Shown: positions 3,452 to 45,030 of the stretch, piece after piece
Layout of the letters: each line of letters begins with the position of its first letter
How positions within the stretch are numbered: position 1 is the stretch's first letter
Source: a virus
Taxonomy: Duplodnaviria; Heunggongvirae; Uroviricota; Caudoviricetes
Reading direction: 5' to 3' (one strand)
IMG/VR virus record: IMGVR_UViG_2627854098_000004
Length of the DNA stretch: 51,192 nt
Notes under the pieces: model-generated
What the model was told of the DNA's origin: nothing
Databases searched by the model: none
What the model saw: the letters and a program-made list of their open reading frames with translations, nothing else
Translations under genes and position numbers: made by a program

Positions 3452-3745
3452 TCACCCACGATTAACCAACAGCCAGACCAGCAGACACGCCACCACCGGC
3501 ACAGCAAAATCCATCAGGCTTGCCACATCCCAAGCACGCGGATCAAAACCGCCCCACCACGGCATATTCATTCGCTTGCCATGCCCGAACATTTCAATCC
3601 AGCGATATTCTGCCTGGGTATGTTCACGCGCAATGAAGAACGTACAACCGGCTATCGCTCCGTAAGCCCAGTTTCCGGTAAAAAGACCAACCAGTATCTG
3701 CGCAGCCACAGCACAAAGTGCATGAAGTAAGGGGCTTATATCCAT
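3452..3745 (-). CDS. small membrane protein (97 aa, two predicted hydrophobic helices)
   Basis: ORF with strong RBS AGGAGG overlapping the stop of the upstream gene; hydrophobic N- and C-terminal segments; function unknown. Confidence 0.55.
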   Translation of the reverse strand: MDISPLLHALCAVAAQILVGLFTGNWAYGAIAGCTFFIAREHTQAEYRWIEMFGHGKRMNMPWWGGFDPRAWDVASLMDFAVPVVACLLVWLLVNRG

Positions 3746-3757
3746 TATTTCCTCCTT

Positions 3758-4036
3758 TCAGCTCCATTCCCGAAGCGGTGTTTCCAGCTCCACGACATAA
3801 TCAGAGAATACAGAAACATCAAACAAGTCATCAAGAATGCGAATGTTGACAAAATAACCATCATTCCGGATACAGACAGGTTCTCCCTCTTCTGTTACCC
3901 CTGTTTCTGTGTAGGTGAAACCAATTTCATCAACTAACAGTTTATTCTGGAGGTCTTCATCTTCCGCCCAGCCAAGAGATGACAGGAAGGCCTTAAACTG
4001 CAGTTTGTCATGAAACTTCAAAGTTAAATCTTTCAT
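3758..4036 (-). CDS. hypothetical protein (92 aa) immediately downstream of the side tail fibre gene
   Basis: ORF start overlaps the stf stop by 4 nt (translational coupling); acidic protein; sits where a tail-fibre assembly gene would be but does not look like lambda Tfa. Confidence 0.5.
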   Translation of the reverse strand: MKDLTLKFHDKLQFKAFLSSLGWAEDEDLQNKLLVDEIGFTYTETGVTEEGEPVCIRNDGYFVNIRILDDLFDVSVFSDYVVELETPLREWS

Positions 4037-6096
4037 ACGACCTCTTTTAATTGCCTGTCATTTAATTCTTTATGCCATATGCGGAAATTGCGAATATGGC
4101 CAAACAGATGTCGTTCTCCAGTATTCGTCTGCCCTCCAAATCGGATATTTTTATCAGCGGTCACGCCATTATATTCACAATAAACTTCATTAACCGCTTT
4201 ACCATTTGTCACCACATGAAAGTGACCATCAGCTTTTGCAATACATCCAAATGTGGTTTTCTCTGCAAATACATCTGTCGCTGCGCTATTAACATACGAG
4301 CCTGAAGGGTTTGACAGACTCATATATAACTTACCACTACCTCTGTTGACTGCTGCAATTGCTGATTGCCCGGTATTGGCTGCTGCTATATCCCACACGC
4401 GGGGTGCGGCGTTTGGTGCAATATCCCAGTTTTTATGAATCTCAAGTAAAAAAGTAAATGGTAACTTATAAAGATTATTTCTGGTGGGGATACTAACCAA
4501 ATCACTGGCTCTTGTCGTTGCGCTGCCTCCTGAAATAATAAATGATGATACACACGGCCCATTCTCTACTTGTGGGGTGGCAAGATAAATATAGTCACCA
4601 GATACTGTTGCCCCACCCTTCTCAGGAGAATACTGTATCTGAGAGCCTATTTTTAACTCACCATCAATTGCCTGAATCGTTGCCTCTGCAAAAATCCAGC
4701 CCGTGGTCTTATCCTTCCTGACTCGTGCCGTAATTCTGCCGGCAGCACCACCTGTCATATTAATTTCAAGCGTTTGCGTATCAATGTACGCATCGCCAAG
4801 AAAAGTTGTTGCACTTCCGTCATATTTATCAAACCGGATTCGCAACCTTACCTGCAGTTCTGTTTTAAAGCGACATGAGGTTGTCACGTATTTATTATCG
4901 CCTGAGACATCAACTGACTTTGTTGCAGCAATTGATGCCATATTAATAGCCGAAGTTTGCCCAACCAGAGAATCGTTGCAGACAAACTTTCCATAAGTAA
5001 AACCAAAACTATCCGTCCCGGTTTCGGGCACATCCATGTTTGATGACTTCCCCCAGCTGGCTGGACTTTCCGAATTGAGCATGTAGTTCGTTCTTTGTCC
5101 CTCAATAAGCAGGCCATCACACTCAAATCGCGGCTCATTAATTTCCGCCGTTTTCAGTTCGCCAGATTTGTTGATATATGTTGCCGTTGATGCGCGACTG
5201 AAATTAACCTGTTTATCACTGGCGACCTGAACCACATCGTCACCAATAGCTATTTTTTTATAGCCCGGAGAAAAACCCGCAATCATATCCAGTGAATCGT
5301 TAAACGGTATCCACACATCAGGCAGCGGCGGCACTATATTCGCATAGGGCTCTGCAGTCACTTCCGCTGCGGCTTCTGCGCGGTCTGCCGCCTTTTCAGC
5401 TCGTGTCGCTGCCGACAGAGCCTCATCCTTTTTCTGCCCGGCCTTTGTTGCGTCTGCTGCAGCCTCCCGCGCTTTTGTGGTGGCGACTCCGGCATTTTCA
5501 GCGGCTGACTCTGCATTACGGCGGGAAGCCTCTTCACTGTCTGCGGAGGCTTCTTCTGACGCACGGGCATTTGTCTCTGAACGTTCTGCCGCTGTTGCTG
5601 CGTTTTGTGCGGCTGTTTTTGAAGAAGCTGCCGCTTTCGCGCTGTTACCTGCATTCGTCTCTGATGTTTTCGCCGCGTTCCTGGACGATGCCGCTGCTGT
5701 TTCTGATTTCTTTGCTGCCGCTGCGCTCTGAGAGGCGGCTTCAGCGTTGCGTGCCACATCCTCCACCATTTCCTGAAAACGGCGCAATGCCTCCGGCATG
5801 ACATCATCTTCCGTCATGGCACCGAGAAAATCATTCAGCGTCCCCGGACTGGAACCTTCATAGACGGTAATGGTCCCAACATGTGATGGCTGAGAACCCT
5901 CAATCCACAGGATGACGCTGTACTGACCATACTCAACGTCCATACTGTAACGCCCGGCTTCATCAGGATTTTCAGAGGCCACCGTGTTCACCAGTACCGT
6001 GGTGCTGTTACGCTTTGCCTTCAGTTGAATAGTGCAGTTCTGTATTGGTTTTCCCGCACCATCTTTCAGCACACCTGAGATTTTTACTGCTGCCAT
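4033..6096 (-). CDS. stf: side tail fibre protein (Stf-like; lambda-type N-terminus, Ala/Ser-rich low-complexity shaft, distinct C-terminal domain)
   Basis: ORF 4033..6102; likely start ATG 6096-6094 (MAAVKISGVLKDG, as in lambda Stf) with GGAG upstream. Confidence 0.8.
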   Translation of the reverse strand: MAAVKISGVLKDGAGKPIQNCTIQLKAKRNSTTVLVNTVASENPDEAGRYSMDVEYGQYSVILWIEGSQPSHVGTITVYEGSSPGTLNDFLGAMTEDDVMPEALRRFQEMVEDVARNAEAASQSAAAAKKSETAAASSRNAAKTSETNAGNSAKAAASSKTAAQNAATAAERSETNARASEEASADSEEASRRNAESAAENAGVATTKAREAAADATKAGQKKDEALSAATRAEKAADRAEAAAEVTAEPYANIVPPLPDVWIPFNDSLDMIAGFSPGYKKIAIGDDVVQVASDKQVNFSRASTATYINKSGELKTAEINEPRFECDGLLIEGQRTNYMLNSESPASWGKSSNMDVPETGTDSFGFTYGKFVCNDSLVGQTSAINMASIAATKSVDVSGDNKYVTTSCRFKTELQVRLRIRFDKYDGSATTFLGDAYIDTQTLEINMTGGAAGRITARVRKDKTTGWIFAEATIQAIDGELKIGSQIQYSPEKGGATVSGDYIYLATPQVENGPCVSSFIISGGSATTRASDLVSIPTRNNLYKLPFTFLLEIHKNWDIAPNAAPRVWDIAAANTGQSAIAAVNRGSGKLYMSLSNPSGSYVNSAATDVFAEKTTFGCIAKADGHFHVVTNGKAVNEVYCEYNGVTADKNIRFGGQTNTGERHLFGHIRNFRIWHKELNDRQLKEVV

Positions 6097-6105
6097 ATCC
6101 ACTCC

Positions 6106-6133
6106 ACAAAAAAGCCCGCCTGAACCGGCGGGC
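6106..6133 (-). terminator. intrinsic terminator downstream of lom
   Basis: On the - strand GCCCGCC-GGTTCA-GGCGGGC followed by TTTTTTGTGG. Confidence 0.6.
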
Positions 6134-6160
6134 TGTCATAACACTGTGTTGCCTGGTTAA

Positions 6161-6760
6161 TCAGAATTTATAACCGACACCAACGATGAAACCGTCAGTG
6201 CGCCAGTCGCCACTGCCGGAACCTTCATAAGCAATATCAATGGCCACGGATTCGGTCGGGTTAAACTGCACGCCAGCCCCCCACGCCAGAGACGTGTCGC
6301 TGTAGCGACCGTCATCACTTCCGGTCAGCACATCGTCCGTTTTCCCCTTGTTATCAGTTACGCGGAGATAATCCCCGGAGAAAGTCGACACACGGCTGTA
6401 AGCCACGCCCGCCATCGCATACGTGCTGAACCATTCATTCACGCGTACAGACGGCCCCGCCATCATGCTGAACCAGCGGTTACGCACGGAATCTTCATGC
6501 CAGCGGGTATCGCTGTAGTGCGTTTTTTGCTCATCCTCAGCATTGGCATAACTGAAGGACGTAATCAGCCCCAGCGCGTCCGTAAACTCATAACGGTATT
6601 TCACGTTAATCCCGTTCAGATTATCGCTGCCGGGAGCGTTCGTACGGGCATGAAGATACCCCGCGCTCAGTGTGGACTGATGTTCAGACGCCCATGCAGG
6701 CGCACCGGATACGGACAGACAGATGGCTGCGGACAAAATGGCTGCACATAATTTACGCAT
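6161..6760 (-). CDS. lom: Lom outer-membrane protein (Ail/Lom family)
   Basis: 199-aa ORF with signal peptide; near-identical to lambda Lom as I recall it; position between J and stf as in lambda. Confidence 0.85.
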   Translation of the reverse strand: MRKLCAAILSAAICLSVSGAPAWASEHQSTLSAGYLHARTNAPGSDNLNGINVKYRYEFTDALGLITSFSYANAEDEQKTHYSDTRWHEDSVRNRWFSMMAGPSVRVNEWFSTYAMAGVAYSRVSTFSGDYLRVTDNKGKTDDVLTGSDDGRYSDTSLAWGAGVQFNPTESVAIDIAYEGSGSGDWRTDGFIVGVGYKF

Positions 6761-19930: not shown

Positions 19931-20278
19931 TTACGGCAGCGCCGCGTGACTCAGGGCACTGCCAGCAAAGGCGTTGGCCTTTTTGTGTTCATCCACACTT
20001 TCAGGCCAGTGGATTGCCTCCGTCGCAAAGGTTCCCGACTTGTAATACGTCAGCGCCGTCTCTGTGCCTTCAAGCGGCAGTACCAGTATGCCAACCGCAC
20101 TACCGGCTTTCTGTCCGTCCCAGACCACCAGTTTCCCGGTGGCTTCATCCAGCATCAGGGGCGTCAGTGCCGGTGTTGGCGAGGAAATCCCGCTGCTGCC
20201 TGTGGCGGTATGAGCCGGATCATTACCGGCAAAAATACGTACTTCCGCACGCTGTTCAGTGATGGTTTTCGTCACCAT
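19931..20278 (-). CDS. D: head decoration protein D
   Basis: 115 aa; lambda gpD-like (NDPAHTAT, YKSGTF motifs). Confidence 0.85.
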   Translation of the reverse strand: MVTKTITEQRAEVRIFAGNDPAHTATGSSGISSPTPALTPLMLDEATGKLVVWDGQKAGSAVGILVLPLEGTETALTYYKSGTFATEAIHWPESVDEHKKANAFAGSALSHAALP

Positions 20279-20314
20279 ATTGTAAAAACCTCCTATTGAT
20301 GGTCAGCACTGACT

Positions 20315-21820
20315 TCATGGCATGGCCATGAGCATTTTCACGTCCGCATCACCGTCTGCTGACGTCTGTGCCACGCCACCCTGTACCGCTGCCGGTGAAT
20401 GGTTCGCCATGAAATGTTCAAACATGGCGGTTGTGGATGCAGAGACCGGTTCTGCCTTACCTGATCCCGCAGCCAGCACAGCCCGGGCGCTCTCCACTGT
20501 CATTCCCGGGCAGGCAGCCAGCTGTTCAGCCTGCGCCTCAGCCCCTTTTGCCTCATCCAGTGCCATGATCTGATCACGGAGTGATGGTCCGGCATCCGCC
20601 TGCGGTGAAGCAGCCAGGATCGGGCGGGCTTTTTCCACCGTCATCTCCGGCATCGCCGCCAGCGTTGCCGCCAGTTGTTCACGACCGTTCGCTTCTTCAC
20701 ACACCATAATGCGATCGGCTTCACTCTGCGTGGATGCCACCGGCTGCTGCGGTGCCGCCGCGGCCAGAATCGCCCGGGCCTGTTCAACGCTCATGCCCTG
20801 TTGTCCTGCCAGCATCGTGGCAAGCTGTTCACGTCCTTTCGCTTCCTGGCATGTCAGGATCCCCATCACTCGCTGGTTCTCCTGCGCGGCGGCTTCCGTT
20901 GCAGTTAATTGCGGCATAGTGCCTCCTCTGACATTACTGTTCAGCGCCGTGGCCATCACACTGATGGCATCCGACGCATTGATTAATTCATCCGCCAGCC
21001 CGGCCTCAATGCCGGACTGACCTTCAAAAACGGCAGCCTCTGTTCCCGTGACGGCATCAACAGACAGACCGGTATACATCGCCACTTTTTCGGCAAACAT
21101 CCGGCGCGCCGCATCAATCCGCTGCTGCATGTCCTGGCGAACCTCTGCCGGCAACGCTTCAAACTGATTGCCATCCACCTTGTGCGCCCCTGAGTAAATC
21201 AGCGTGATATCCACACCGGCCTGCGCCAGATGACCGGCATAGCTGACATGGCTCATCATCACGCCAATGGAGCCGATACGGGATGTCTGGGTAACCAGCC
21301 GTCGGGAGCAGGCCGACGCCAGCAGCATGGCTGCAGAACAGGCCGTGTCATTGCACAGTGCCCAGACCGGCTTCTGCTGACGGAGGCGGTAAATCATGTC
21401 AGCGCAGTCAAACGCGCCGGCGGCCTGCCCGCCCGGACTGTCAATGTCCAGCAGTACGCCCCGCACCTGGCTATCCGCCATTGCCTGCTGAAGACAGGCG
21501 ACAATGCCGTCATAGCCTGTCATTCCGGAAAATGGCCGCATACCACCCAGCCGGTGCACCAGTGTGCCGGTCACCGGCAGTACAGCAATACCGTTCACCA
21601 CCCGGTAAACACGGGCCGGTCGTTTACCTCCGGCCATGTACTCGTCCGTTTCAGCCAGCATTCCGGGAGCATCAAACTGTACCTGCTGTTGTGGTACCGA
21701 AAGACTTGCTGCCCCCATCTCGCGCCCGAGCGCGCAAAAGAAAACCCGCGCATAGGCGGGCTCCAGAAGCAGCGGTTCATTGAATGCTGCGGCAATAATG
21801 TGTGAAAGATTACGTCTCAC
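20315..21820 (-). CDS. C: head protease/scaffold protein C (S49/SppA-like) with a triplicated C-terminal repeat
   Basis: 501 aa; DSPGG serine-protease motif; the C-terminal part carries three tandem degenerate copies of about 40-45 aa (EAKGREQLA...MSVEQARAILAA). Confidence 0.8.
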   Translation of the reverse strand: MRRNLSHIIAAAFNEPLLLEPAYARVFFCALGREMGAASLSVPQQQVQFDAPGMLAETDEYMAGGKRPARVYRVVNGIAVLPVTGTLVHRLGGMRPFSGMTGYDGIVACLQQAMADSQVRGVLLDIDSPGGQAAGAFDCADMIYRLRQQKPVWALCNDTACSAAMLLASACSRRLVTQTSRIGSIGVMMSHVSYAGHLAQAGVDITLIYSGAHKVDGNQFEALPAEVRQDMQQRIDAARRMFAEKVAMYTGLSVDAVTGTEAAVFEGQSGIEAGLADELINASDAISVMATALNSNVRGGTMPQLTATEAAAQENQRVMGILTCQEAKGREQLATMLAGQQGMSVEQARAILAAAAPQQPVASTQSEADRIMVCEEANGREQLAATLAAMPEMTVEKARPILAASPQADAGPSLRDQIMALDEAKGAEAQAEQLAACPGMTVESARAVLAAGSGKAEPVSASTTAMFEHFMANHSPAAVQGGVAQTSADGDADVKMLMAMP

Positions 21821-25517: not shown

Positions 25518-26037
25518 CGATCCACCCGCCCACGTTTTCACCGGCCTTAGCTGCAACATTGGAGGCTTTCGCGATTTCAGTTTTCACCACATCAAGGTGT
25601 GATGGTGAAATGTCCGGATATTTACGCTGTAATGTCAACGGCACACGCACAAGTATCCCCGAAATCTCCTGTGCCACACGTTGCAGAATGAAGGTAAACA
25701 GTTCAGTTTCCAGCACTACTCCGTCTTCACGGGCATTTTTCAGTTCCTGCGCATCTGCCTGCGCTTTTGTGAGCCGGTAGCGTTCATAGTCAATGGTGCC
25801 GGGTTGTAAATCTGACTCCGCTGCCGCACGCAAATCGTCCAGTTCTTTGCGGAGCTTTTCGTTTTCGATATCAGTTTCCCTCTGCGCATACCACTGAATT
25901 GCCATGGCAGTATCAAATACAGATTCAATGCCCTTACTACCTTTGGAGGCGCAAGGGAGTCCCTGAGACTGCCAGCGTTCAATCGTCCGCGGGTCCACGT
26001 TGAAAATTTCGGCAAGCCTCTTTTTATTAACCTTCAT
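25489..26037 (-). CDS. nu1: terminase small subunit Nu1
   Basis: 182 aa; lambda Nu1-like but with a diverged N-terminal helix-turn-helix. Confidence 0.85.
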
Positions 26038-26117: not shown

Positions 26118-26219
26118 TTTACGGATGCAATATTAAAAAAACAAAAAGTTATATTCGAGAAGTACCGTAACCGGCTCATTTAAACCGTCTGGTCTGTTTC
26201 CTCCGGCTCTACAAAAATA

Positions 26220-26897
26220 ATGTCCATCATTTTTAATGGACACTATCGTATGAAACACCGGACCTGGATCACTGAAGCTTTACGTCTTCACTTTGAAGAA
26301 CATTTACCCCGGGTTGTGGCCGGGCGTCGCCTGGGTGTACCAAAATCAACAGTTTGTAGTATGTTCGTGCGCTTTCGGAGAGCTGGCCTTTCGTGGCCTT
26401 TGCCCGCAGGCATGTCGGAGCAGGAACTTGATGCCTGCCTTTACGGACAATTTTCCACGGTACCAGTCGTACGTCCTGAAAGCACCGTTATATCCGAAGC
26501 CCCCGTGGTAAAAAAACGTCCCCGGCGGCCCAACTTCCCTTATGAGTTTAAAATCGCCTTAGTGGAGCAGTCACTGCAGCCCGGAGCCTGTGTGGCGCAG
26601 ATCGCCCGGGAAAACGGAATCAACGATAACCTGCTCTTCAACTGGCGCCATCAATACCGGAAAGGTGGCCTGCTGCCTTCCGGAAAAAATATGCCGGCAC
26701 TGCTTCCCGTGACGTTAACGCCGGAGCCGGATAATAAAATCCCGGCCCCCGCACAGGAACCAGAGCAGATAAATACACCGTCCGACAGTCTGTGTTGTGA
26801 GCTGGTTCTGCCGGCCGGAACTCTCAGGCTTAAAGGTAAACTGACGCCGGCGTTATTACAGACACTTATCCGCGAAATAAAAGGGAGCAGCCACTGA
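26220..26897 (+). CDS. IS66-family accessory protein TnpA (start uncertain)
   Basis: ORF has an IS66 orf1-like C-terminal part (PNFPYEFKIALVEQSL...LLFNWRHQYRKG); the N-terminal extension may not be translated. Confidence 0.6.
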   Translation: MSIIFNGHYRMKHRTWITEALRLHFEEHLPRVVAGRRLGVPKSTVCSMFVRFRRAGLSWPLPAGMSEQELDACLYGQFSTVPVVRPESTVISEAPVVKKRPRRPNFPYEFKIALVEQSLQPGACVAQIARENGINDNLLFNWRHQYRKGGLLPSGKNMPALLPVTLTPEPDNKIPAPAQEPEQINTPSDSLCCELVLPAGTLRLKGKLTPALLQTLIREIKGSSH

Positions 26898-27244
26898 TGA
26901 TATCTCTCCCTGCAGGTTCGCGTATCTGGCTGGTTGCAGGTATCACCGATATGCGAAATGGCTTTAACGGCCTGGCATCAAAAGTTCAGAACGTCCTGAA
27001 GGATGACCCGTTCTCCGGACACCTGTTCATCTTCCGCGGACGCCGGGGTGACCAGATAAAAGTGTTGTGGGCTGACAGTGACGGACTGTGCCTCTTCACC
27101 AAACGCCTGGAGCGGGGCCGCTTCGTCTGGCCAGTCACCCGTGACGGCAAGGTGCACCTTACTCCGGCTCAGTTATCCATGCTTCTTGAAGGTATCAACT
27201 GGAAGCACCCGAAACGAACGGAACGCGCTGGAATCCGCATATAA
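26897..27244 (+). CDS. IS66-family TnpB
   Basis: 115 aa; [27 protein letters not shown] signature. Confidence 0.85.
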   Translation: MISLPAGSRIWLVAGITDMRNGFNGLASKVQNVLKDDPFSGHLFIFRGRRGDQIKVLWADSDGLCLFTKRLERGRFVWPVTRDGKVHLTPAQLSMLLEGINWKHPKRTERAGIRI

Positions 27245-27263
27245 CCCGTTGTAAAGTGAGGAT

Positions 27264-28835
27264 ATGGACACCTCACTTGCTCATGAGAACGCCCGCCTGC
27301 GGGCACTGTTGCAGACGCAACAGGACACCATCCGCCAGATGGCTGAATACAACCGCCTGCTCTCACAGCGGGTGGCGGCTTATGCTTCCGAAATCAACCG
27401 GCTGAAGGCGCTGGTTGCGAAACTGCAACGTATGCAGTTCGGTAAAAGCTCAGAAAAACTTCGTGCAAAAACCGAACGGCAGATACAGGAAGCACAGGAG
27501 CGAATCAGCGCACTTCAGGAAGAAATGGCGGAAACGCTGGGTGAGCAATATGACCCGGTACTGCCATCCGCCCTGCGCCAGTCTTCAGCCCGTAAACCGT
27601 TACCGGCCTCACTTCCCCGTGAAACCCGGGTTATCCGGCCGGAAGAGGAATGCTGTCCTGCCTGTGGTGGTGAACTCAGTTCTCTGGGATGTGATGTGTC
27701 AGAGCAACTGGAGCTTATCAGCAGCGCCTTTAAGGTTATCGAAACACAACGTCCGAAACAGGCCTGTTGCCGGTGCGACCATATCGTGCAGGCACCAGTA
27801 CCTTCAAAACCCATTGCACGCAGTTATGCCGGAGCGGGGCTTCTGGCCCATGTTGTCACCGGGAAATATGCAGACCATCTGCCGTTATACCGCCAGTCAG
27901 AAATATACCGTCGTCAGGGAGTGGAGCTGAGCCGTGCCACACTGGGGCGCTGGACAGGTGCTGTTGCTGAACTGCTGGAGCCGCTGTATGACGTCCTGCG
28001 CCAGTATGTGCTGATGCCCGGTAAAGTCCATGCTGATGATATCCCCGTCCCGGTCCAGGAGCCGGGCAGCGGTAAAACCCGGACAGCCCGGCTGTGGGTC
28101 TACGTCCGTGATGACCGTAACGCCGGTTCACAGATGCCCCCGGCGGTCTGGTTCGCGTACAGTCCGGACCGGAAAGGTATCCATCCACAAAATCACCTGG
28201 CCGGTTACAGCGGTGTGCTTCAGGCCGATGCTTACGGTGGTTACCGGGCGTTATACGAATCCGGCAGAATAACGGAAGCCGCGTGTATGGCTCATGCCCG
28301 GAGAAAAATCCACGATGTGCATGCAAGAGCGCCCACCTACATCACCACGGAAGCCCTGCAGCGTATCGGTGAACTGTATGCCATCGAGGCAGAGGTCCGG
28401 GGCTGTTCAGCAGAACAGCGTCTGGCGGCAAGAAAAGCCAGAGCCGCGCCACTGATGCAGTCACTGTATGACTGGATACAGCAACAGATGAAAACACTGT
28501 CGCGTCACTCAGATACGGCAAAAGCGTTCGCATACCTGCTGAAACAGTGGGATGCACTGAACGTGTACTGCAGTAATGGCTGGGTGGAAATCGACAACAA
28601 CATCGCAGAGAACGCCTTACGGGGAGTGGCCGTAGGCCGGAAAAACTGGATGTTCGCGGGTTCCGACAGCGGTGGTGAACATGCGGCGGTGTTGTACTCG
28701 CTGATCGGCACATGCCGTCTGAACAATGTGGAGCCAGAAAAGTGGCTGCGTTACGTCATTGAACATATCCAGGACTGGCCGGCAAACCGGGTACGCGATC
28801 TGTTGCCCTGGAAAGTTGATCTGAGCTCTCAGTAA
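27264..28835 (+). CDS. IS66-family transposase TnpC
   Basis: 523 aa; zinc-ribbon CxxC...CxxC and IS66 transposase core. Confidence 0.85.
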
Positions 28836-28919
28836 ATATCAATACGGTTCTGACGAGTCGCTTACGAAGTACCGACACGATTTTCCCTGAAAAATTTTCA
28901 TAAATAGTGAAAAACCGCG

Positions 28920-28931
28920 AGGTCGCCGCCC
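28920..28931 (-). other. cosN cohesive-end site (lambda-type 12-nt sequence GGGCGGCGACCT on the - strand)
   Basis: The - strand reads GGGGCGGCGACCTCGCGGTTTTTCACTATTTATGAAAATTTT, closely matching the lambda cos region as I recall it; separated from Nu1 by the IS66 element. Confidence 0.75.
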
Positions 28932-29694: not shown

Positions 29695-30021
29695 TCAAGG
29701 ACGTGACGGCGTAAAGATAAATTGTCTCTTCACTCCCTGACAGGGGCGATTCTTTTCAAATCGCCATTTCGCCATGGCCTTCACCACTTCATCACGAAAC
29801 AAATTATGAGGCTCTGAGCGGAGAAAAACGATCCGTGTCACAGTCCCATCAGCACCAATATCGAACTTAACCTCAACCAGCCCCTTGATATAATTTGCTG
29901 CAGCATATTCCGGATATCGTGGATACACCGTCACTAATTGCCGGGGCTCATCAGCTTTTTGCTGCGAGCATCCCACTGCCAGGACAGATAACAGAAAAAG
30001 TAGTAAAAGGCGTCTTTTCAT
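29695..30021 (-). CDS. lipoprotein with a TonB C-terminal-like domain (108 aa)
   Basis: Start ATG 30021 with RBS AGGAA; lipobox LAVGC followed by Ser; PRYPEYAAANYIKGLVEVKFDIGADGTVTRIVFLRSEPHNLFRDEVVKAMAKWRF aligns with the E. coli TonB C-terminal domain. Confidence 0.7.
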   Translation of the reverse strand: MKRRLLLLFLLSVLAVGCSQQKADEPRQLVTVYPRYPEYAAANYIKGLVEVKFDIGADGTVTRIVFLRSEPHNLFRDEVVKAMAKWRFEKNRPCQGVKRQFIFTPSRP

Positions 30022-30501: not shown

Positions 30502-30795
30502 ATGAAAAAAATGTTGTTTTCTGCCGCTCTGGCAATGCTTATTACAGGATGTGCTCAACAGACGTTTACTGTTGGAAACAAACCTACAGCAGTAACACCA
30601 AAGGAAACCATCACCCATCATTTCTTCGTTTCGGGAATTGGGCAGAAGAAAACTGTCGATGCAGCAAAAATTTGTGGTGGTGCAGAAAATGTTGTTAAAA
30701 CAGAAACCCAGCAAACATTCGTAAATGGATTGCTCGGTTTTATTACTTTAGGCATTTATACTCCGCTGGAAGCGCGTGTGTATTGCTCACAATAA
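30502..30795 (+). CDS. bor: Bor lipoprotein (serum-resistance family)
   Basis: Start MKKMLFSAALAMLITGCAQQ; near-identical to lambda Bor; opposite strand to the lysis genes as in lambda. Confidence 0.9.
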   Translation: MKKMLFSAALAMLITGCAQQTFTVGNKPTAVTPKETITHHFFVSGIGQKKTVDAAKICGGAENVVKTETQQTFVNGLLGFITLGIYTPLEARVYCSQ

Positions 30796-32585: not shown

Positions 32586-33668
32586 ATGAAAAAATTAACA
32601 GTGGCAATTTCTGCTGTAGCTGCATCAGTACTGATGGCGATGTCTGCTCAGGCAGCTGAAATTTATAATAAAGACAGTAACAAGCTGGATCTATACGGGA
32701 AAGTTAATGCCAAGCACTACTTCTCCTCTAATGATGCAGATGATGGTGATACTACTTATGCCCGTCTTGGCTTCAAAGGTGAAACCCAAATCAACGATCA
32801 ACTGACTGGTTTCGGTCAGTGGGAATATGAATTCAAAGGCAACCGTGCTGAATCTCAAGGTTCTTCCAAAGACAAAACCCGTCTTGCATTTGCAGGCCTG
32901 AAATTTGGTGATTACGGCTCAATCGATTACGGCCGTAACTACGGTGTAGCATACGACATCGGTGCGTGGACTGACGTTCTGCCAGAATTCGGTGGTGATA
33001 CCTGGACCCAAACAGATGTGTTCATGACTGGTCGCACTACTGGTGTTGCAACTTATCGTAACAACGACTTCTTTGGTCTGGTCGATGGCCTGAACTTTGC
33101 TGCTCAGTATCAGGGTAAAAATGACCGCACTGACGTAACTGAAGCCAATGGTGATGGTTTCGGTTTCTCCACTACTTATGAGTATGAAGGATTCGGCGTG
33201 GGTGCAACCTATGCTAAATCAGATCGCACTGACGGTCAGGTCGCCTATGGTAAGAGCAAATTCAATGCCTCCGGCAAAAATGCGGAAGTATGGGCTGCAG
33301 GCCTGAAATATGATGCGAACAATATCTATCTGGCTACCACATATTCTGAAACTCAGAATATGACCGTTTTTGGTAATAACCATATTGCAAACAAAGCACA
33401 AAACTTTGAAGCAGTAGCACAATATCAGTTTGACTTCGGTCTGCGTCCATCTGTTGCTTACCTTCAGTCAAAAGGTAAAGACCTTGGTGTTCATGGTGAC
33501 CGAGACTTAGTCAAGTATGTCGATGTCGGTGCTACTTACTACTTTAATAAAAACATGTCCACTTTTGTTGATTACAAAATCAACTTAATTGACGATAGTA
33601 AGTTTACCAAAACAGCTGGTATTGATACCGACGACATCGTCGCTGTAGGTCTGGTTTATCAGTTCTAA
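32586..33668 (+). CDS. phage-borne general porin (OmpC/OmpF/NmpC-Lc family)
   Basis: ORF 32526..33668; start ATG 32586 with RBS AAGGG; signal peptide ...AMSAQA then AEIYNKD, C-terminal F; between Q and S on the opposite strand, as for nmpC in DLP12. Confidence 0.9.
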
Positions 33669-36877: not shown

Positions 36878-37575
36878 ACACTTGCTCCTTTCAGTCCTAA
36901 CTTAGCTTTAATTTCTGCGATCTTCGCCAGCGCCTGAACACGATTTAGAGGTCTGCCGCCCATGACAGGAAGTTGTTTTACTGGTTCAGGTATCGTCTCA
37001 CCACGGTTAATTCGCGCTGTCATACAGGTCAGTTCATCGGCAGCCTTGCGTCGTAATTCCGCGTCAGTCAGCGCATTGGCCCGCATGTTCTGGTACAGGT
37101 TGGTAACCAGCCAGTAGTGCGCGTTCGATTTCCACGGATAAGACTCTGCATCCGGATACAGGCCTCGCTTCCGGCAATACTCGTAAACCATATCAACCAG
37201 CTCGCTGACGTTTGGCAGTCCGGCGATAACGGATGCTTCTTCCCGGCACCATGCAACAAACTGCCCGGGTGATGGCAGAAATGGTCGATTCTGCCGACGG
37301 GCTACGCGCATTCCTGCGTTAACCTGTTCCATTGTGGTGATCCCGTTTTCCCGGAAAGCCAGAACCCACTGGCGGCGGATTTCGTTCAGTTCGTTCTGGT
37401 CACGGTTAGCCAGACTCGCCGGGAAAGTTGCCAGTAACTGGCTGAACACACCGTTGATGATCTGCGCTACCTGCTGTACCTGCGGCTTTTCGTCGTACTG
37501 TTCCGGCATGTTGTTGGCGATCCGACGCATCTGCTCACGGTCAAAATTAACCATCTGTGCGGCGATGTTTTTCAT
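36874..37575 (-). CDS. P: replication protein P (DnaB loader)
   Basis: 233 aa; near-identical to lambda P; ATGA overlap with the O stop. Confidence 0.9.
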   Translation of the reverse strand: MKNIAAQMVNFDREQMRRIANNMPEQYDEKPQVQQVAQIINGVFSQLLATFPASLANRDQNELNEIRRQWVLAFRENGITTMEQVNAGMRVARRQNRPFLPSPGQFVAWCREEASVIAGLPNVSELVDMVYEYCRKRGLYPDAESYPWKSNAHYWLVTNLYQNMRANALTDAELRRKAADELTCMTARINRGETIPEPVKQLPVMGGRPLNRVQALAKIAEIKAKLGLKGASV

Positions 37576-38470
37576 AAATCCACCCCGTAAATCCAGTCAG
37601 TGTTTGTCAGGTCGAGTTTTGGTTTGCAGGCTGTCACACCTGCCTGTTGCTTGTTACGGTTGATTTCGAGCTGGGTCCACTTGTCGCGGAGTTTGGCCGG
37701 GCTCAGCACGTTACCGGACCAGAAGTTGTCCTGGCATGCCCAGCGGAACAGTACACACATGTCGCGATGGTTACGTCCGTCACGTTCACGCATCAGGCGG
37801 ATATCGTTAGCCCACCCTGCAAAATTCGGTTTTCTGGCTGATGGCGCGATGGTCTTCACCATGTCAAACATCCATTCTGCGGCGGTCAGGTCTTCTGCTG
37901 TCCCCCACTTGCTGCCGCTCTGAATTGCAGCATCCGGTTTCACCACAGAAAGGTCGTTTTCTGGCTGGTCAGAGGATTCGCCAGAATTCTCTGACGAATA
38001 ATCTTTTCTTTTTCTTTTGTAATAGTGTCTTTTGTGTCCCCCTGTTTTGAGGGATAGCAATCCCCCAATTTGAGGGATGTTTTATCCCTCGTTTTAGGGG
38101 ATTTTCCCTCGTTTTGAGGGATACACCATTCTGAGATGTTTTTATTTGGTCCAAACATGCCGCCTTGCTGCTTGATAATATTCATTCTGACGAGTTCTAA
38201 CTTGGCTTCATTGCACCGTTTGACGGGTAACTTTGTAATCTCGCTAAGTTGAGAATCGGTGATTCTGTCCATTGGTTTATTCCATCCATAGGTTTTACGC
38301 AGAATGGCAAGCAGCACTTTAAACTGTCGCTTGGTCAGATCTGCGCCTGAATAAGCCTCAAGCAGCATATTTGATAGTCTGGCGTAACCATCATCGAGAT
38401 CTGCCACATTACGCTCCTGTTTGGCAAAGTTACCTCTGCAGAAGTTGAGTATTTTTGCTGTATTTGTCAT
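37572..38470 (-). pseudogene. O: replication initiator O, split by a 1-nt deletion in the AT-rich ori segment
   Basis: ORFs 37940..38470 (O N-terminus) and 37572..38060 (O C-terminus) overlap; total 899 nt against 900 expected; the frame change maps to the plus-strand T5 run 38009-38013. Confidence 0.75.
38041..38120. repeat. ori iterons (four roughly 19-bp O-binding repeats) inside the O gene
   Basis: On the - strand four tandem copies of TCCCTCAAAACGAGGGA-like repeats, followed by an A/T-rich segment at 37990-38040. Confidence 0.85.
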
Positions 38471-38884: not shown

Positions 38885-38930
38885 TCGCTTTTCAGCGACG
38901 TAGGACGAATGTCCGTTGTTACAAAGAGCG
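38885..38930 (-). promoter_or_regulatory. nutR: boxA-like CGCTCTTTG, an intervening hairpin, and boxB-like hairpin TCGCU-GAAA-AGCGA
   Basis: Immediately downstream of the cro stop on the - strand; same element order as the nutL candidate, with paired base changes in both stems. Confidence 0.55.
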
Positions 38931-40524: not shown

Positions 40525-41273
40525 TGTGCTCAACAGTGATCTCACAACTAGGTTTCGAATGCCATCCAATAGGCAAGACCTTGAGAATTATCAGTCCATT
40601 CACTTACTGTGATGATGGAGAGCATGTCGGTGCCTTTATCCGTGAAGTCAATGGTAGGTATTTAGTTAGTGACAGATGCGATGCCTTAATGAATATGGAG
40701 GCAAGAGGGATCTCGCTTACCAAAAAACGACTTGATGAGATACGACAATTACTGCTTAAAGAAGGCGCAGAACTCAATGCTCGAGGAGAAATCATTGCTT
40801 GGGCAACAGAAAAGGATGTCGGTGCGATTACATCGAACATAATTAGAGCTGGTATACTCGCATCAACTTTGTCGTTAGACTGGTATCAGCCAGTTCAAGC
40901 TGAAAAGTTTGAAAGTATGGTTATTGATTATCTATATCACACAGAGCTTAGAGACGCACTTTCTCTTCGTGAAAACGTATATGGCTTGAGTGGACATCAA
41001 ATTACCGTCCCTGTAACAATAAAAACCGACATACCTAAATACGTTTTTACATCAAGCGTGAAACACGGAGGAAGCTGGAATAGTGCTTACTCATTGCTTG
41101 GGAAACTAATTGATCTTAAAGCTTCAAGTGAGGAGTATAACAACAGATTTGTTGTTATAGACAGCGAAGCAATTGGTGATCAAATGCAACAACTCTCCTT
41201 ACTCTTCCATGAATCAAGCCAAGTTCTACCATTCTCCAAAAGAGAGACTTGGGTTAAGAGACTTGCAGCATAA
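40521..41273 (+). CDS. hypothetical protein B of the cI-downstream cassette (250 aa)
   Basis: ATG overlaps the stop of gene A (ATGA at 40521-40524); AT-rich; no recognisable motif; followed by a terminator. Confidence 0.65.
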   Translation: MMCSTVISQLGFECHPIGKTLRIISPFTYCDDGEHVGAFIREVNGRYLVSDRCDALMNMEARGISLTKKRLDEIRQLLLKEGAELNARGEIIAWATEKDVGAITSNIIRAGILASTLSLDWYQPVQAEKFESMVIDYLYHTELRDALSLRENVYGLSGHQITVPVTIKTDIPKYVFTSSVKHGGSWNSAYSLLGKLIDLKASSEEYNNRFVVIDSEAIGDQMQQLSLLFHESSQVLPFSKRETWVKRLAA

Positions 41274-41277
41274 TACA

Positions 41278-41304
41278 ACCCGGCCTCAGCGCCGGGTTTT
41301 CTTT
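41278..41304 (+). terminator. intrinsic terminator ending the cI-cassette operon
   Basis: CCCGGC-CTCAGC-GCCGGG followed by TTTTCTTT. Confidence 0.65.
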
Positions 41305-41492
41305 GCCTCACGTTCGCCCACCTAAAAACACATAACCAATTATATTTATTGAAAAATAAATAGATGCAACCCACTAAACCACGCAATTCTGATCTCTCCT
41401 TACATCGCCGAGGCAATACATCCACGCTAAAAAACAACACTATTAAATACAAAGCGTTATAAAAAACCACGCCAACTTACAACAAATTGTAT

Positions 41493-41520
41493 TGATCTTG
41501 TAAAGTACATATCGTACTAT
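41493..41520 (+). promoter_or_regulatory. candidate pL promoter with overlapping operator
   Basis: -35 TTGATC, 16-bp spacer, -10 TACTAT; the spacer contains AAAGTACATATCGTACT, the same quasi-palindrome class as in OR. Confidence 0.45.
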
Positions 41521-41566
41521 TTAACCGTCAGCAGGACGCTGGAAGCCAAATGGAACAGACTGGCAG

Positions 41567-41611
41567 GCTCTTTAAACAACGTCGACTCTCGACTACGTGG
41601 CTGAAAAGCCA
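41567..41611 (+). promoter_or_regulatory. nutL: boxA-like GCTCTTTA, intervening hairpin GTCGA-CTC-TCGAC, boxB-like hairpin GGCU-GAAA-AGCC
   Basis: Between the pL candidate and the N start; architecture parallels nutR. Confidence 0.55.
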
Positions 41612-41709
41612 GATCACCCAACCACATAAGCTGTGGGATGCAATGCCGAAGCAACCGTCTCAGGAGGAGCTTCGAGATTGCATCGCCAAAGTTTATTCGG
41701 GAGGAATCC

Positions 41710-41798
41710 ATGTCCAGAAAAACAGAATTTAAAGGCACCGCAGCTTCTCGCCGTAGAGCTCGTCGCGCAAATCTGCAAAGTCAGGAGGCGATCAGCTC
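41710..41798 (+). pseudogene. N: N antiterminator, 5' fragment (codons 1-29), interrupted by IS66
   Basis: ATG 41710 with RBS GGAGGAA; arginine-rich N-terminus MSRKTEFKGTAASRRRARRA; reading frame continues at 44249 after the IS and one copy of the target duplication. Confidence 0.55.
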
Positions 41799-41835
41799 GT
41801 AAGCGTGCAGCAAGAACCGTATTGACGGGGATGTG

Positions 41836-43374
41836 TTATTCAGTCGGCAGTGCTACGCGCCAGGGGAGCAGTTCGCCGACCCGGTTTATCGGCCAGTCGG
41901 CTATGACGTCAAGGACATAGCGGAGGTAGCTTTCTGGCTCCACTCCGTTCAGTTTGCACGTCCCGATCAGGCTGTACAGCAGCGCTCCCCGCTCTCCTCC
42001 ATGATCCGAACCGAAGAACAGGTAGTTTTTGCGGCCCAGACTGACCATCCGCAACGCATTTTCAGCGATGTTATTGTCCGCCTCAGCCCAGCCATCATCT
42101 GCATAGTACGTCAGCGCCGGCCACTGGTTCAGGGCGTATGCGAACGCTTTCGCCAGTTCTGAGTGTCGCGACAGGGTTTTCATCTTTTCACGCAGCCAGC
42201 TTTCCAGGGATTTCAGCAGCGGTTTCGTTTTCAACTGACGTTCGGCAAGGCGCTGCTCCGCCGTCATTCCCCTTATCTCTGCCTCGATGGCGTACAGTTC
42301 GCCGATCCGTTTCAGCGCTTCCTCCGTCAGGGCTGACGGGGTGCGAACGTGCACATCGTGGATTTTACGGCGGGCGTGAGCCCAACAGGCGGCTTCCGTT
42401 ATCCGGCCATCCCGGTACAGCTCGTTGAACCCGGCGTATGCATCCGCCTGCAGTACACCACTGAACCCCGCAAGATGGGTCTGCGGATGGATGCCTTTTC
42501 TGTCCGGGCTGTAAGCGAACCACACCGCCGGCGCCAGCGTTGACCCGGCGTTACGGTCGTCACGAACGTAGGTCCATAACCGCCCGGTCTTCGTTTTCTT
42601 ATTGCCTGGCAACAGCACCGGGACAGGCGTGTCATCAGCATGGAGCTTACCGTCAGTCAGCACATAGCCATGAAGCGCCTCTTCCAGCGGAGACAGCAGC
42701 CGGCAGCATGCATCCACCCAGCCCGACAGCAGTGAACGGCTCAGCTCCACACCTTGCCGGCCGTATATTTCTGACTGGCGATACAGCGGGGTGTGCTCTG
42801 CATACTTCGAGGTCAGCACGCGGGCCAGCAGCCCCGGTCCGGCGATACCCCGCTCGATGGGCCGCGAAGGTGCAGGTGCCTGCACGATGGCATCGCACTG
42901 AGTACAGGCATGTTTTTCCCGTACCGTCCGGATAACCCGGAAGGCGCTACGCATCAACTCCAGCTGTTCGGCGGTATCCTCGCCCAGATAGCTCAGTGAA
43001 CCGCCGCAGTTCGGGCAGCACGGCGCCGCAGGCAACAGTCGCTTTTCGTCACGGGGTAGTGATTCAGGGAACGGCTTACGGGTGCGGGTCTGACGCAACG
43101 GACGCTGTACTGCCGGGTCATACACCCTACCAGTCAGCGTATCGCTCTCTTTCTGAAGCCGGTTCAGATCGGCTTCCATTTGTGCGATACGGCGGGAGAC
43201 TTTTTCGGAACGACTGCCGAAGTTCATCCGGCGGAGTTTATCCAGCTGCGCCTGCAGATGGTCTATTTCGCGCTCCCGGTTGCTCAGCTTTTCCTGCAGG
43301 GCGTGGATCAGCGCTTCCTGTTCGGCCAGGCGCTGTTTCAGCAGGAAGATGTCGTCAGAAGAGATGTCGTTCAT
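41836..43374 (-). CDS. IS66-family transposase TnpC
   Basis: 512 aa; IS66 transposase with zinc-ribbon CxxC motifs. Confidence 0.85.
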
Positions 43375-43423
43375 AAGCCCGTATTTTACCGGGCTTATTC
43401 TGTGACAACCAGGATAAAGAGAT

Positions 43424-43771
43424 TTACAGCATGGTCAGGGAGGTCAGCAGCCGCTTAGGCTGTCGCCAGTCGATACCTTCCAGCAGCATCGCCAGCTGCG
43501 CCTGTGTAAGGAACACTTTGCCATCACGGGCTGACGGCCAGGCGAAGCGCCCACGCTCCAGCCGTTTGGTCAGGAGGCACAGTCCGTCACCGGTGGACCA
43601 CAGCAGTTTAACCTGACTGCCGCTGCGGCCCCGGAAAATGAAAACATGGCCGGACATGGGATCGTCTTTCAGCGCCGTCTGTACTTTCGCAGCCAGGCCG
43701 TTGAAGCCATTTCTCATATCAGTGATACCGGCAACCAGCCAAATTTTGGTCCCGGAAGGTAACGGGATCAT
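43424..43771 (-). CDS. IS66-family TnpB
   Basis: 115 aa; [27 protein letters not shown]. Confidence 0.85.
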
Positions 43772-44169
43772 CGCTTCAGTTCCTGTATCAGCAGAGTCAG
43801 GAGCTTTTCGCTGACATTGCCATTGAAGCGGAGCGTCCCGTGCCGGAACGTTACCTCACAGCTGATACTGAGGGTTTCCGGGTCCTCTGCGAGCGATTCT
43901 GGCTGTTCGGCAGCTGCATCGAGAGTCACAGGAAGTAGCTGGGGGCTCTCTGAAGAAGGTAATAGCAGCTTTCCCTCGCGCCATTGTTGTCGCCATTTGA
44001 ACAACAGATTGGCGTTAATGCCATTTTCAAGAGCAAGTTTTGAGATGGATATCCCGGGTTCACAGGAGGCAGCAACGAGCTGCTGTTTAAATTCGGGAGG
44101 ATAATTAGGGCAGCCTTTTCGCCTGCCGGGAGTCACATTTTTCTGCATATCTGACACTTTGGTTCCCAC
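43768..44169 (-). CDS. IS66-family TnpA
   Basis: 133 aa; ATGA-type overlap with tnpB. Confidence 0.8.
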   Translation of the reverse strand: MGTKVSDMQKNVTPGRRKGCPNYPPEFKQQLVAASCEPGISISKLALENGINANLLFKWRQQWREGKLLLPSSESPQLLPVTLDAAAEQPESLAEDPETLSISCEVTFRHGTLRFNGNVSEKLLTLLIQELKR

Positions 44170-44240
44170 TACTTATTTGGTGGACACCACTTTGTCTAAT
44201 TCGTCAGATTCTGACCAGACGGTTCAGGCTGTACGCTTAC

Positions 44241-44432
44241 ATCAGCTCCGACAAGCTACACAGGCCAACCCCTTCACGAGTGGTCTTGCAATGCAAGCTC
44301 AAACCAGCAATGAGAGCAGAAGTGATAACTCTGACAACGTTGACCAGAAAATATGAAGGTTCAACTTGTCTTCCGAACGTAGCTCTTTACGCGGCAGGCT
44401 ACCGGAAATCAAAACAACTGACGGCGAGATGA
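44241..44432 (+). pseudogene. N: N antiterminator, 3' fragment
   Basis: In-frame continuation of the 41710 ORF once the IS and one target-duplication copy are removed; stop TGA at 44430-44432; reconstructed N is 90 aa. Confidence 0.5.
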
Positions 44433-44448
44433 TAAATTCATTTGCTAA

Positions 44449-45030
44449 TTACTTGTTTTTGCCATGCTTATCCTGAGCGATAAGTTCATCCATAAGGCTG
44501 TCTGCCTTCCCGGCAAACCTAATGTAGCACTCATGTCTATAGCTTTCAGGGATAACGAAACGGTCGGTATCAGGATATCCAACAGCAGGAGGCCTTCGAA
44601 CGAGGAGTCCTTTTTTGAGCAATGAAATTGATTCATGAGCGCCCTTTTCCGTTTGTAGCTGGTTATTAGCGGCTACAGCGAATGCCAAATACGCTCTTTC
44701 TCCAAGAGTTAACGAATCAAACAAATCTTGCACATATTTTTCTTCTTTAGATTTGCGCTTCTGAGCAGCGAATACCTCAATTCTTTCAGTCACAGCGTGA
44801 TAAGCGGAATTAACAACGCCGTTAAGCACATAGCTAACGCAAAACAACAGGATGTAATACATCCAGTAATGAGGAAGGATTTCTGGATTATGCAGGTTTA
44901 TCCATTCTTTTACGCTTACCGGCATAACAATAATCAATATGATCAGGATGATTAGCATATGAATCAACTGTTTAAGTGTCATTCCTTGCAGGAAAAAATG
45001 CATTAGTTCCTGCCACCATGAGTTGTTCAT
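44449..45030 (-). CDS. sieB: superinfection exclusion protein SieB-like membrane protein
   Basis: 193 aa; N-terminal hydrophobic segment LIHMLIILIILIIVMPV; located between N and ral as sieB is in lambda. Confidence 0.65.
   Translation of the reverse strand: MNNSWWQELMHFFLQGMTLKQLIHMLIILIILIIVMPVSVKEWINLHNPEILPHYWMYYILLFCVSYVLNGVVNSAYHAVTERIEVFAAQKRKSKEEKYVQDLFDSLTLGERAYLAFAVAANNQLQTEKGAHESISLLKKGLLVRRPPAVGYPDTDRFVIPESYRHECYIRFAGKADSLMDELIAQDKHGKNK

Follow-up and report, generated by a model that had tools for sequence, protein, structure and literature searches.

The 51,192-nt window analyzed here (IMG/VR virus record IMGVR_UViG_2627854098_000004) belongs to the chromosome of the avian pathogenic Escherichia coli (APEC) strain IMT5155 (NZ_CP005930.1), which carries a lambda-like prophage adjoining icd. 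The antitermination gene N of this prophage, a gene of the 90-aa type present in the Shiga toxin 2 (Stx2) phage VT2-Sakai, has very probably been split in codon 30 by transposition of an insertion sequence (IS) of the IS66 family. The interrupted open reading frame (ORF) starts with an ATG at position 41710 that is preceded by a GGAGG Shine-Dalgarno sequence, and deletion in silico of positions 41799-44248, i.e. of the IS and one copy of its target-site duplication, yields an uninterrupted 90-aa ORF with its stop codon at 44430-44432. A preliminary description of this stretch had predicted that the ORF would be restored in this way, which is confirmed with an end at 44432; it had further placed the insertion after codon 29, and while the site and the splitting of the ORF were recognized correctly, the codon was not, the break lying after the second base of codon 30. 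Because the IS begins with G-TAA, translation is predicted to stop right after residue 30, and the product of the interrupted gene, MSRKTEFKGTAASRRRARRANLQSQEAISS, corresponds exactly to native residues 1-30. As the frame is broken in codon 30, an intact, expressible N is not encoded and the locus is an N pseudogene. This is ordinary pseudogenisation and already explicit in the RefSeq annotation, where the 5' piece is given as 'antitermination protein N, incomplete, missing C-terminus' and the 3' piece as 'antitermination protein N, incomplete, missing N-terminus', the two flanking the IS66 genes.

The inserted element belongs to the IS66 family, every family feature that was tested being present. 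Its tnpC product matches the Pfam domain DDE_Tnp_IS66 (2e-106) along with zf-IS66, LZ_Tnp_IS66 and DDE_Tnp_IS66_C, and the products of tnpB and tnpA match TnpB_IS66 (1e-38) and HTH_Tnp_1 (2e-12), respectively. The element thus exhibits the three-ORF layout of the family, with the order tnpA-tnpB-tnpC and an IS66-type DDE transposase. The IS termini constitute the strongest inverted repeat of the region (22 nt, 86% complementary, GTAAGCGTGCAGC.../...GCTGTACGCTTAC) and both begin with GTAAGCG; imperfect terminal repeats of about 20-30 bp starting with 5'-GTAA are a family trait according to ISfinder. The GTAA-type imperfect terminal inverted repeats are combined with an 8-bp direct target duplication, again as in other IS66 elements, and this octamer, ATCAGCTC, has exactly two occurrences in the whole 51-kb window, each of them flush with an IS end. 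The IS segment has a G+C content of 57% vs. 42% in both flanks. The preliminary description had assigned a 2442-bp IS66-family element and its target duplication to exactly these positions, and both protein domains and repeats agree with that assignment. The IMT5155 chromosome contains further full-length copies of the IS that are 100% identical, and such copies are also present in many other strains. In the labels given by PGAP, which are not ISfinder names, tnpC copies with 97-99.5% identity appear as 'IS66-like element ISEc22 family' and copies with ~93% identity as 'ISEc8 family'.

The rebuilt empty site exists in nature. Over 1051 nt it is 100% identical, without gaps, to ev017, ev207, PhiR57_1 and PhiR63_2 (four distinct phages, six records), and over 524 nt it is 100% identical in about 250 E. 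coli genome records, an agreement in phages and genomes that excludes chance for the reconstruction. The uninterrupted 524-nt site is found with the same 100% identity in APEC O1, UTI89, S88, CFT073, Nissle 1917 and many prophages of B2 extraintestinal pathogenic E. coli (ExPEC). The exact left and right junctions are present in three out of 5426 complete E. coli genomes, all of which stem from avian isolates, namely IMT5155 (chicken), DE17 (duck) and VTB96815v (chicken, South Africa); the nutL-N 5' segment itself occurs in 763 genomes. Taken together, a junction found in three genomes, a widespread empty site and identical IS copies show that the lesion is recent and vertically inherited and that it goes back to a simple transposition event, the source being a multi-copy IS resident in the genome.

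The preliminary description had regarded the interrupted ORF, which opens with an arginine-rich motif, as the N gene located directly 3' of pL and nutL, and this is borne out by Pfam, PHROG, identity with VT2-Sakai and the mapped cis-acting sites. The rebuilt protein matches Pfam family PF25694 N_peptide ('Transcriptional antitermination N peptide') over residues 1-90 with 112.5 bits (E=1.5e-32; the cut-off of the family is 27.9 bits) and PHROG 271 'anti-termination protein N-like' with 2e-24. It shares 89 of 90 residues with the N protein of VT2-Sakai (H0091, 90 aa) and shows 100% identity to its counterpart from phage ev207. Both PhiR57_1 and VT2-Sakai have a 273-nt gene annotated as N that starts at the same codon, and the comparison with N proteins of lambdoid phages that had been proposed as a check returns homologues in abundance. 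The arginine-rich motif comprises residues 13-20 (SRRRARRA). When the rebuilt protein is aligned with P22 gp24 (as given in the deposited gene 24 record) and 933W N, residues F7, G9, R14, R15 and R18 are invariant in the arginine-rich motif, and a C-terminal block LPxVAxYAAGxRKSKQxTAR is likewise invariant across all three proteins; the IS breakpoint falls between these two conserved parts. Furthermore, the gene is the first of the pL operon and cognate nut sites are present in both early operons. A scan of the rebuilt protein against NCBIfam gave no family match, and a PDB sequence search with it returned nothing at E <= 10. All in all, the split ORF is an N antiterminator gene of the 90-aa 'Sakai type'.

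The leader from pL to codon 29 shows a handful of differences from VT2-Sakai, none of which lies within nutL, and as the two leaders are nearly identical, the curated Sakai features can be transferred by alignment. The pL candidate was placed in this manner; in the alignment, each of its columns corresponds to one of the 'putative major leftward promoter' curated in VT2-Sakai. It agrees with the consensus in only 8 out of 12 positions, which is why a strict sigma-70 scan of positions 41200-44700 did not report any promoter. The boxB element of nutL is predicted to fold into a 5-bp stem with a GAAA loop (-7.1 kcal/mol, z = -3.05). The site downstream of cro mirrors nutL with respect to architecture, a 'CTACGT' linker and the GAAA loop, and its boxB stem differs from that of nutL by a compensatory G-C to C-G swap that keeps the pairing. 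Since pL, nutL, nutR and N are all present in restored form, a complete N/nut system existed before the insertion occurred. In this N type, boxB consists of a 5-bp stem topped by a GAAA loop of 4 nt, and a small hairpin is located in each boxA-boxB spacer; the boxB loops of lambda and P22 comprise 5 nt. RefSeq lists a 60-aa 'hypothetical protein' (WP_000438342.1; 41550-41732, plus strand) that overlaps nutL and the start of N in a different frame and is probably a spurious call over the regulatory RNA leader. The coordinates of all features are compiled in Table 1.

Table 1. Features of the interrupted N locus, the nut sites, the second IS66-family element and cargo genes of the IMT5155 prophage (positions refer to the 51,192-nt window)
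Feature	Position	Strand	Details
pL candidate	41492-41520	+	-35 TTGATC, 17-nt spacer, -10 TACTAT
nutL	41567-41611	+	boxA GCTCTTTAA (41567-41575); identical to curated nutL of VT2-Sakai
nutL spacer hairpin	41581-41593	+	GTCGA-CTC-TCGAC
nutL boxB	41598-41611	+	TGGCT-GAAA-AGCCA
N 5' fragment	41710-41802	+	native codons 1-30 including the complete arginine-rich motif, then TAA from IS end
Target-site duplication, left copy	41791-41798		ATCAGCTC; abuts IS end
IS66-family insertion sequence	41799-44240	minus (antisense to pL)	2442 bp; Pfam domains and inverted repeats
IS terminal inverted repeats	41799-41820 and 44219-44240		22 nt
tnpC	41836-43374	minus	
tnpB	43424-43771	minus	
tnpA	43768-44148	minus	
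Target-site duplication, right copy	44241-44248		ATCAGCTC; abuts IS end
N 3' fragment	44249-44432	+	rest of codon 30 to codon 90 and stop; conserved C-terminal block
nutR	38885-38930	minus	downstream of cro; boxA CGCTCTTTGTAACAA (38930-38916)
nutR spacer hairpin	38914-38903	minus	GGAC-ATTC-GTCC
nutR boxB	38898-38885	minus	TCGCT-GAAA-AGCGA
Other IS66-family element, ISCro1-like	26167-28865	+	2699 bp; target duplication GAAGTACC at 26159-26166 and 28866-28873
TonB-family gene (cargo)	29695-30021		inside prophage
iss (cargo)	30502-30795		increased serum survival lipoprotein; adjoins lysis cassette
Porin gene annotated ompC (cargo)	32586-33668		between Q and lysis genes

Lambdoid N proteins are made from pL and turn RNA polymerase at nut sites into a termination-resistant form, such that the delayed-early genes and Q are reached. 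The central and C-terminal parts of N from lambda and H-19B contact NusA and RNA polymerase, and untranslated IS RNA is generally expected to be subject to Rho termination, as known from IS polarity. In IMT5155, pL would upon repressor cleavage give rise to just a 30-residue peptide that retains the boxB-binding arginine-rich motif and should still attach to boxB but is devoid of the parts contacting NusA and RNA polymerase, so that a processive complex would not be assembled and the transcription complexes initiated at pL and pR would not be made termination-resistant. In addition, the pL transcript would have to traverse 2.4 kb of antisense, untranslated IS RNA, which should result in strong Rho polarity. 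In the leftward direction, ral, cIII, kil, gam, bet, exo, xis and int would be under-expressed; in the rightward direction, the same would hold for Q, and the late lysis and morphogenesis genes would stay off. The predicted outcome is that excision, late transcription and lysis do not take place and that the prophage remains trapped in the chromosome without killing the cell upon SOS induction, with retention of iss, the ompC-annotated porin gene and the TonB-family gene as cargo.

Work on related phages is consistent with this scenario. N is required for transcripts to pass terminators and to reach Q, and an engineered 933W prophage in which N::spc is combined with O-P::amp has lost its lethality on induction (PMC3610611). 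In N from H-19B and lambda, the nut-proximal Rho-dependent terminator is the only one at which the RNA polymerase-binding C-terminal domain can be dispensed with, and at hairpin-dependent terminators N no longer mediates antitermination when RNA polymerase carries mutations that impair the binding of N (PMC3526286). By analogy with lambda, H-19B and 933W, the loss of N is likely to block delayed-early expression, as had been proposed in the preliminary description. Several points weigh against this proposal. A consensus scan downstream of N returned nothing convincing, and tL1 and tR1-tR4 were not located. The N proteins of 933W and H-19B are only about 41-55% identical to the N protein studied here and represent a different subtype, so their genetics apply at the family level only. 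The 30-aa peptide with its arginine-rich motif may nevertheless occupy boxB and interfere with Rho locally, and a distant N protein with the same boxB specificity, be it chromosomal or plasmid-borne, would escape a check at the level of megablast. The idea that 933W carries the same N type was considered and rejected, its N being of the 127-aa H-19B type.

It is conceivable that the insertion is functionally inconsequential, either because the prophage is N-independent or because another prophage resident in the cell provides N in trans. Defective prophages of O157 can indeed be rescued by co-resident prophages (PMC2669165), five prophage islands have been reported for IMT5155 (PMC4232414), and the consensus scan did not map any terminators in the prophage. 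However, when the carrier chromosomes were searched at megablast sensitivity, the nutL/N-5' segment and the N-3' segment were found in one place each and no second copy was present (the queries used for counting copies held 20 nt of the IS, such that the genomes with the junction rank first and IS copies cannot seed). Within the window, a tblastn search with four N proteins, i.e. the rebuilt one and those of lambda, P22 and phi21, did not reveal any other N-like coding capacity (best unrelated E=0.37); an intact N-like gene elsewhere in the prophage had been named in the preliminary description as a finding that would refute it. N-nut recognition is moreover type-specific, as is established for lambda, P22 and phi21. 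The ninB-ninE-ninX-rusA-ylcG interval is present between P and Q, and thus a large nin-type deletion has not occurred, and the conservation of nutL and nutR with a compensatory change argues that the system depended on N. An inconsequential insertion therefore appears very improbable, be it through N-independence or through help in trans.

Slightly less credible still is the idea that the 1-30 peptide is not inert and either blocks nearby Rho loading by binding to boxB or acts as a decoy for superinfecting phages with Sakai-type nut sites. The in-frame stop provided by the IS end together with the intact Shine-Dalgarno sequence and pL implies that a clean native 1-30 peptide is encoded, and N proteins of H-19B and lambda that lack the C-terminal domain still overcome a nut-proximal Rho terminator (PMC3526286), but these truncated proteins retained the central part of N, which is missing from the 1-30 peptide. 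Furthermore, pL is repressed in the lysogen, which would limit the peptide to the time after induction, peptides that are short and unstructured tend to be unstable, and conservation does not extend beyond three clonal genomes and hence provides no argument for selection. That the junction is an assembly artefact, with a repeat placed at the wrong locus, can practically be dismissed: the IS is multi-copy and homopolymer errors are probable elsewhere in the IMT5155 prophage, but the three carrier genomes (chicken, duck and chicken, one of them from South Africa), which were sequenced independently, agree in both junctions, and the ends of the inverted repeats directly adjoin a perfect 8-bp duplication.

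The interruption of N by transposition is not the only IS66 insertion in this prophage. The transposase of the second element is labelled 'ISCro1 family' by PGAP, and over the alignable parts its nucleotide identity with the element in N ranges from 69% (tnpC) to 78% (tnpB). The preliminary description had considered the two IS66 copies as different family members in opposite orientations that inserted independently, and this assessment holds, since different elements, each with its own target duplication and orientation, imply separate transposition events. The three genomes with the N junction are also the only ones that contain the ISCro1-like junction; as both are confined to these genomes, their distribution does not reveal the order of the insertions. 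A lambda-like cosN (reverse complement of GGGCGGCGACCT) is located at 28920-28931, the start of nu1 is found at 26037 on the minus strand, and the ISCro1-like element resides about 58-66 nt inside the left end of the phage, between cosN and the gene for the small terminase subunit. Its insertion point presumably corresponds to the position of the R3 element of lambda cosB. Judged from this position, the insertion should disable packaging.

In the strain APEC O1, a sister prophage occupies the same site next to icd. Its protein accessions are identical throughout, N and O are intact, and the three cargo genes, i.e. the TonB-family gene, iss and the ompC-annotated porin gene, do not differ from those of IMT5155. 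The sister prophage is free of an IS in the cos region and lacks a 91-bp segment that includes cosN. The cos region has thus been damaged independently in the IMT5155-type and the APEC O1 lineages. In IMT5155, replication gene O (37572-38470, minus strand) has lost one nucleotide in an A-run at 38000-38022 (A6 to A5), resulting in a frameshift relative to APEC O1 and phage ev017, and is otherwise 100% identical to both. This frameshift was considered as a third real lesion and then downgraded, because O is intact in VTB96815v, which also carries both IS insertions, and because IMT5155 undercounts another A-run relative to APEC O1 (at ~26135-26141); DE17 and VTB96815v have a 1-nt indel within the same 240-nt stretch as the latter run. 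The frameshift in O is accordingly either private to IMT5155 or a homopolymer assembly error.

The insertions in N and next to cosN represent stepwise prophage decay. A far more speculative notion, to which we attach very little probability, is that N::IS and cosB::ISCro1 are selected 'grounding' lesions in an avian O2:K1-type APEC clade, with the 1-30 peptide possibly serving as an additional boxB decoy; if this were true, the lesions would owe their fixation to preventing both death of the cell upon SOS induction and loss of the prophage that carries iss. The interruption of N accounts for the expected failure of the iss-carrying prophage to be induced in the IMT5155 lineage, and the N::IS66 and cosB::ISCro1 junctions offer two clean clonal markers for a small lineage of avian E. 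coli. Apart from that, the case adds one further example of IS66-family elements eroding lambdoid prophages and little beyond bookkeeping. An additional point concerns annotation, as intact 90-aa N proteins are often hidden behind other labels. The intact N of APEC O1 (WP_000088199.1; extracted locus 20193-20465) is designated as 'hypothetical protein', as it is in all but S88 among the 40 RefSeq genomes listed, the entry for S88 reading 'transcriptional antitermination N peptide', and in the record of phage ev017 N is cut to a 40-aa C-terminal ORF (extracted locus 4561-4683).

The closest known relatives of the interrupted gene are the N genes of VT2-Sakai, Nil2 (there termed 'n'), ev017, ev207, PhiR57_1 and PhiR63_2, whose products are identical to the rebuilt protein in 89 or 90 of 90 residues. 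Loci of the VT2-Sakai type agree with that of IMT5155 in start codon, Shine-Dalgarno sequence, pL, nutL boxA, spacer hairpin and boxB as well as in gene order (cI-side terminator, pL, nutL, N). IMT5155 differs from VT2-Sakai in that N is split in codon 30 by the 2442-bp IS and in that the immunity operators just upstream are not the same. The N proteins of H-19B and 933W (127 aa) and P22 gp24 (100 aa) fall into the same Pfam family and share the conserved motif positions and the C-terminal block, and the gene for P22 gp24 is also the first of the pL operon, where it adjoins sieB. They differ by an identity of about 41-55% and by the lengths of their central regions, and the boxB GAAA tetraloop is a feature of IMT5155.

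Inactivation of single essential genes of lambdoid prophages by IS elements is well documented. An IS insertion in N of a lambdoid prophage or the particular N::IS66 allele was not found in the literature, and the paper on the IMT5155 genome does not mention the insertion in N. The nearest parallel is nu1::ISEc8 in prophage Sp4 of the O157:H7 strain Sakai, where an IS66-family element likewise knocked out one essential gene in the course of stepwise decay; there, the target is the small terminase subunit and the host belongs to another lineage (Asadulghani et al., 2009; PMC2669165). An ISEc8 element (IS66 family) of the same size class is found in O157 strain Al Ain, where it likewise lies antisense in the pL operon, again with N of the Sakai type. 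In contrast to IMT5155, N is intact in Al Ain and ISEc8 resides about 0.3-0.4 kb past the N stop codon, between a small ORF and an ea10-like (DUF2528) gene. O157 strain 10671 gave a two-piece match similar to that of Al Ain in the junction search. The Al Ain insertion (extracted locus 3611-6593) is thus a second, independent hit of an IS66-family element on the early-left operon.

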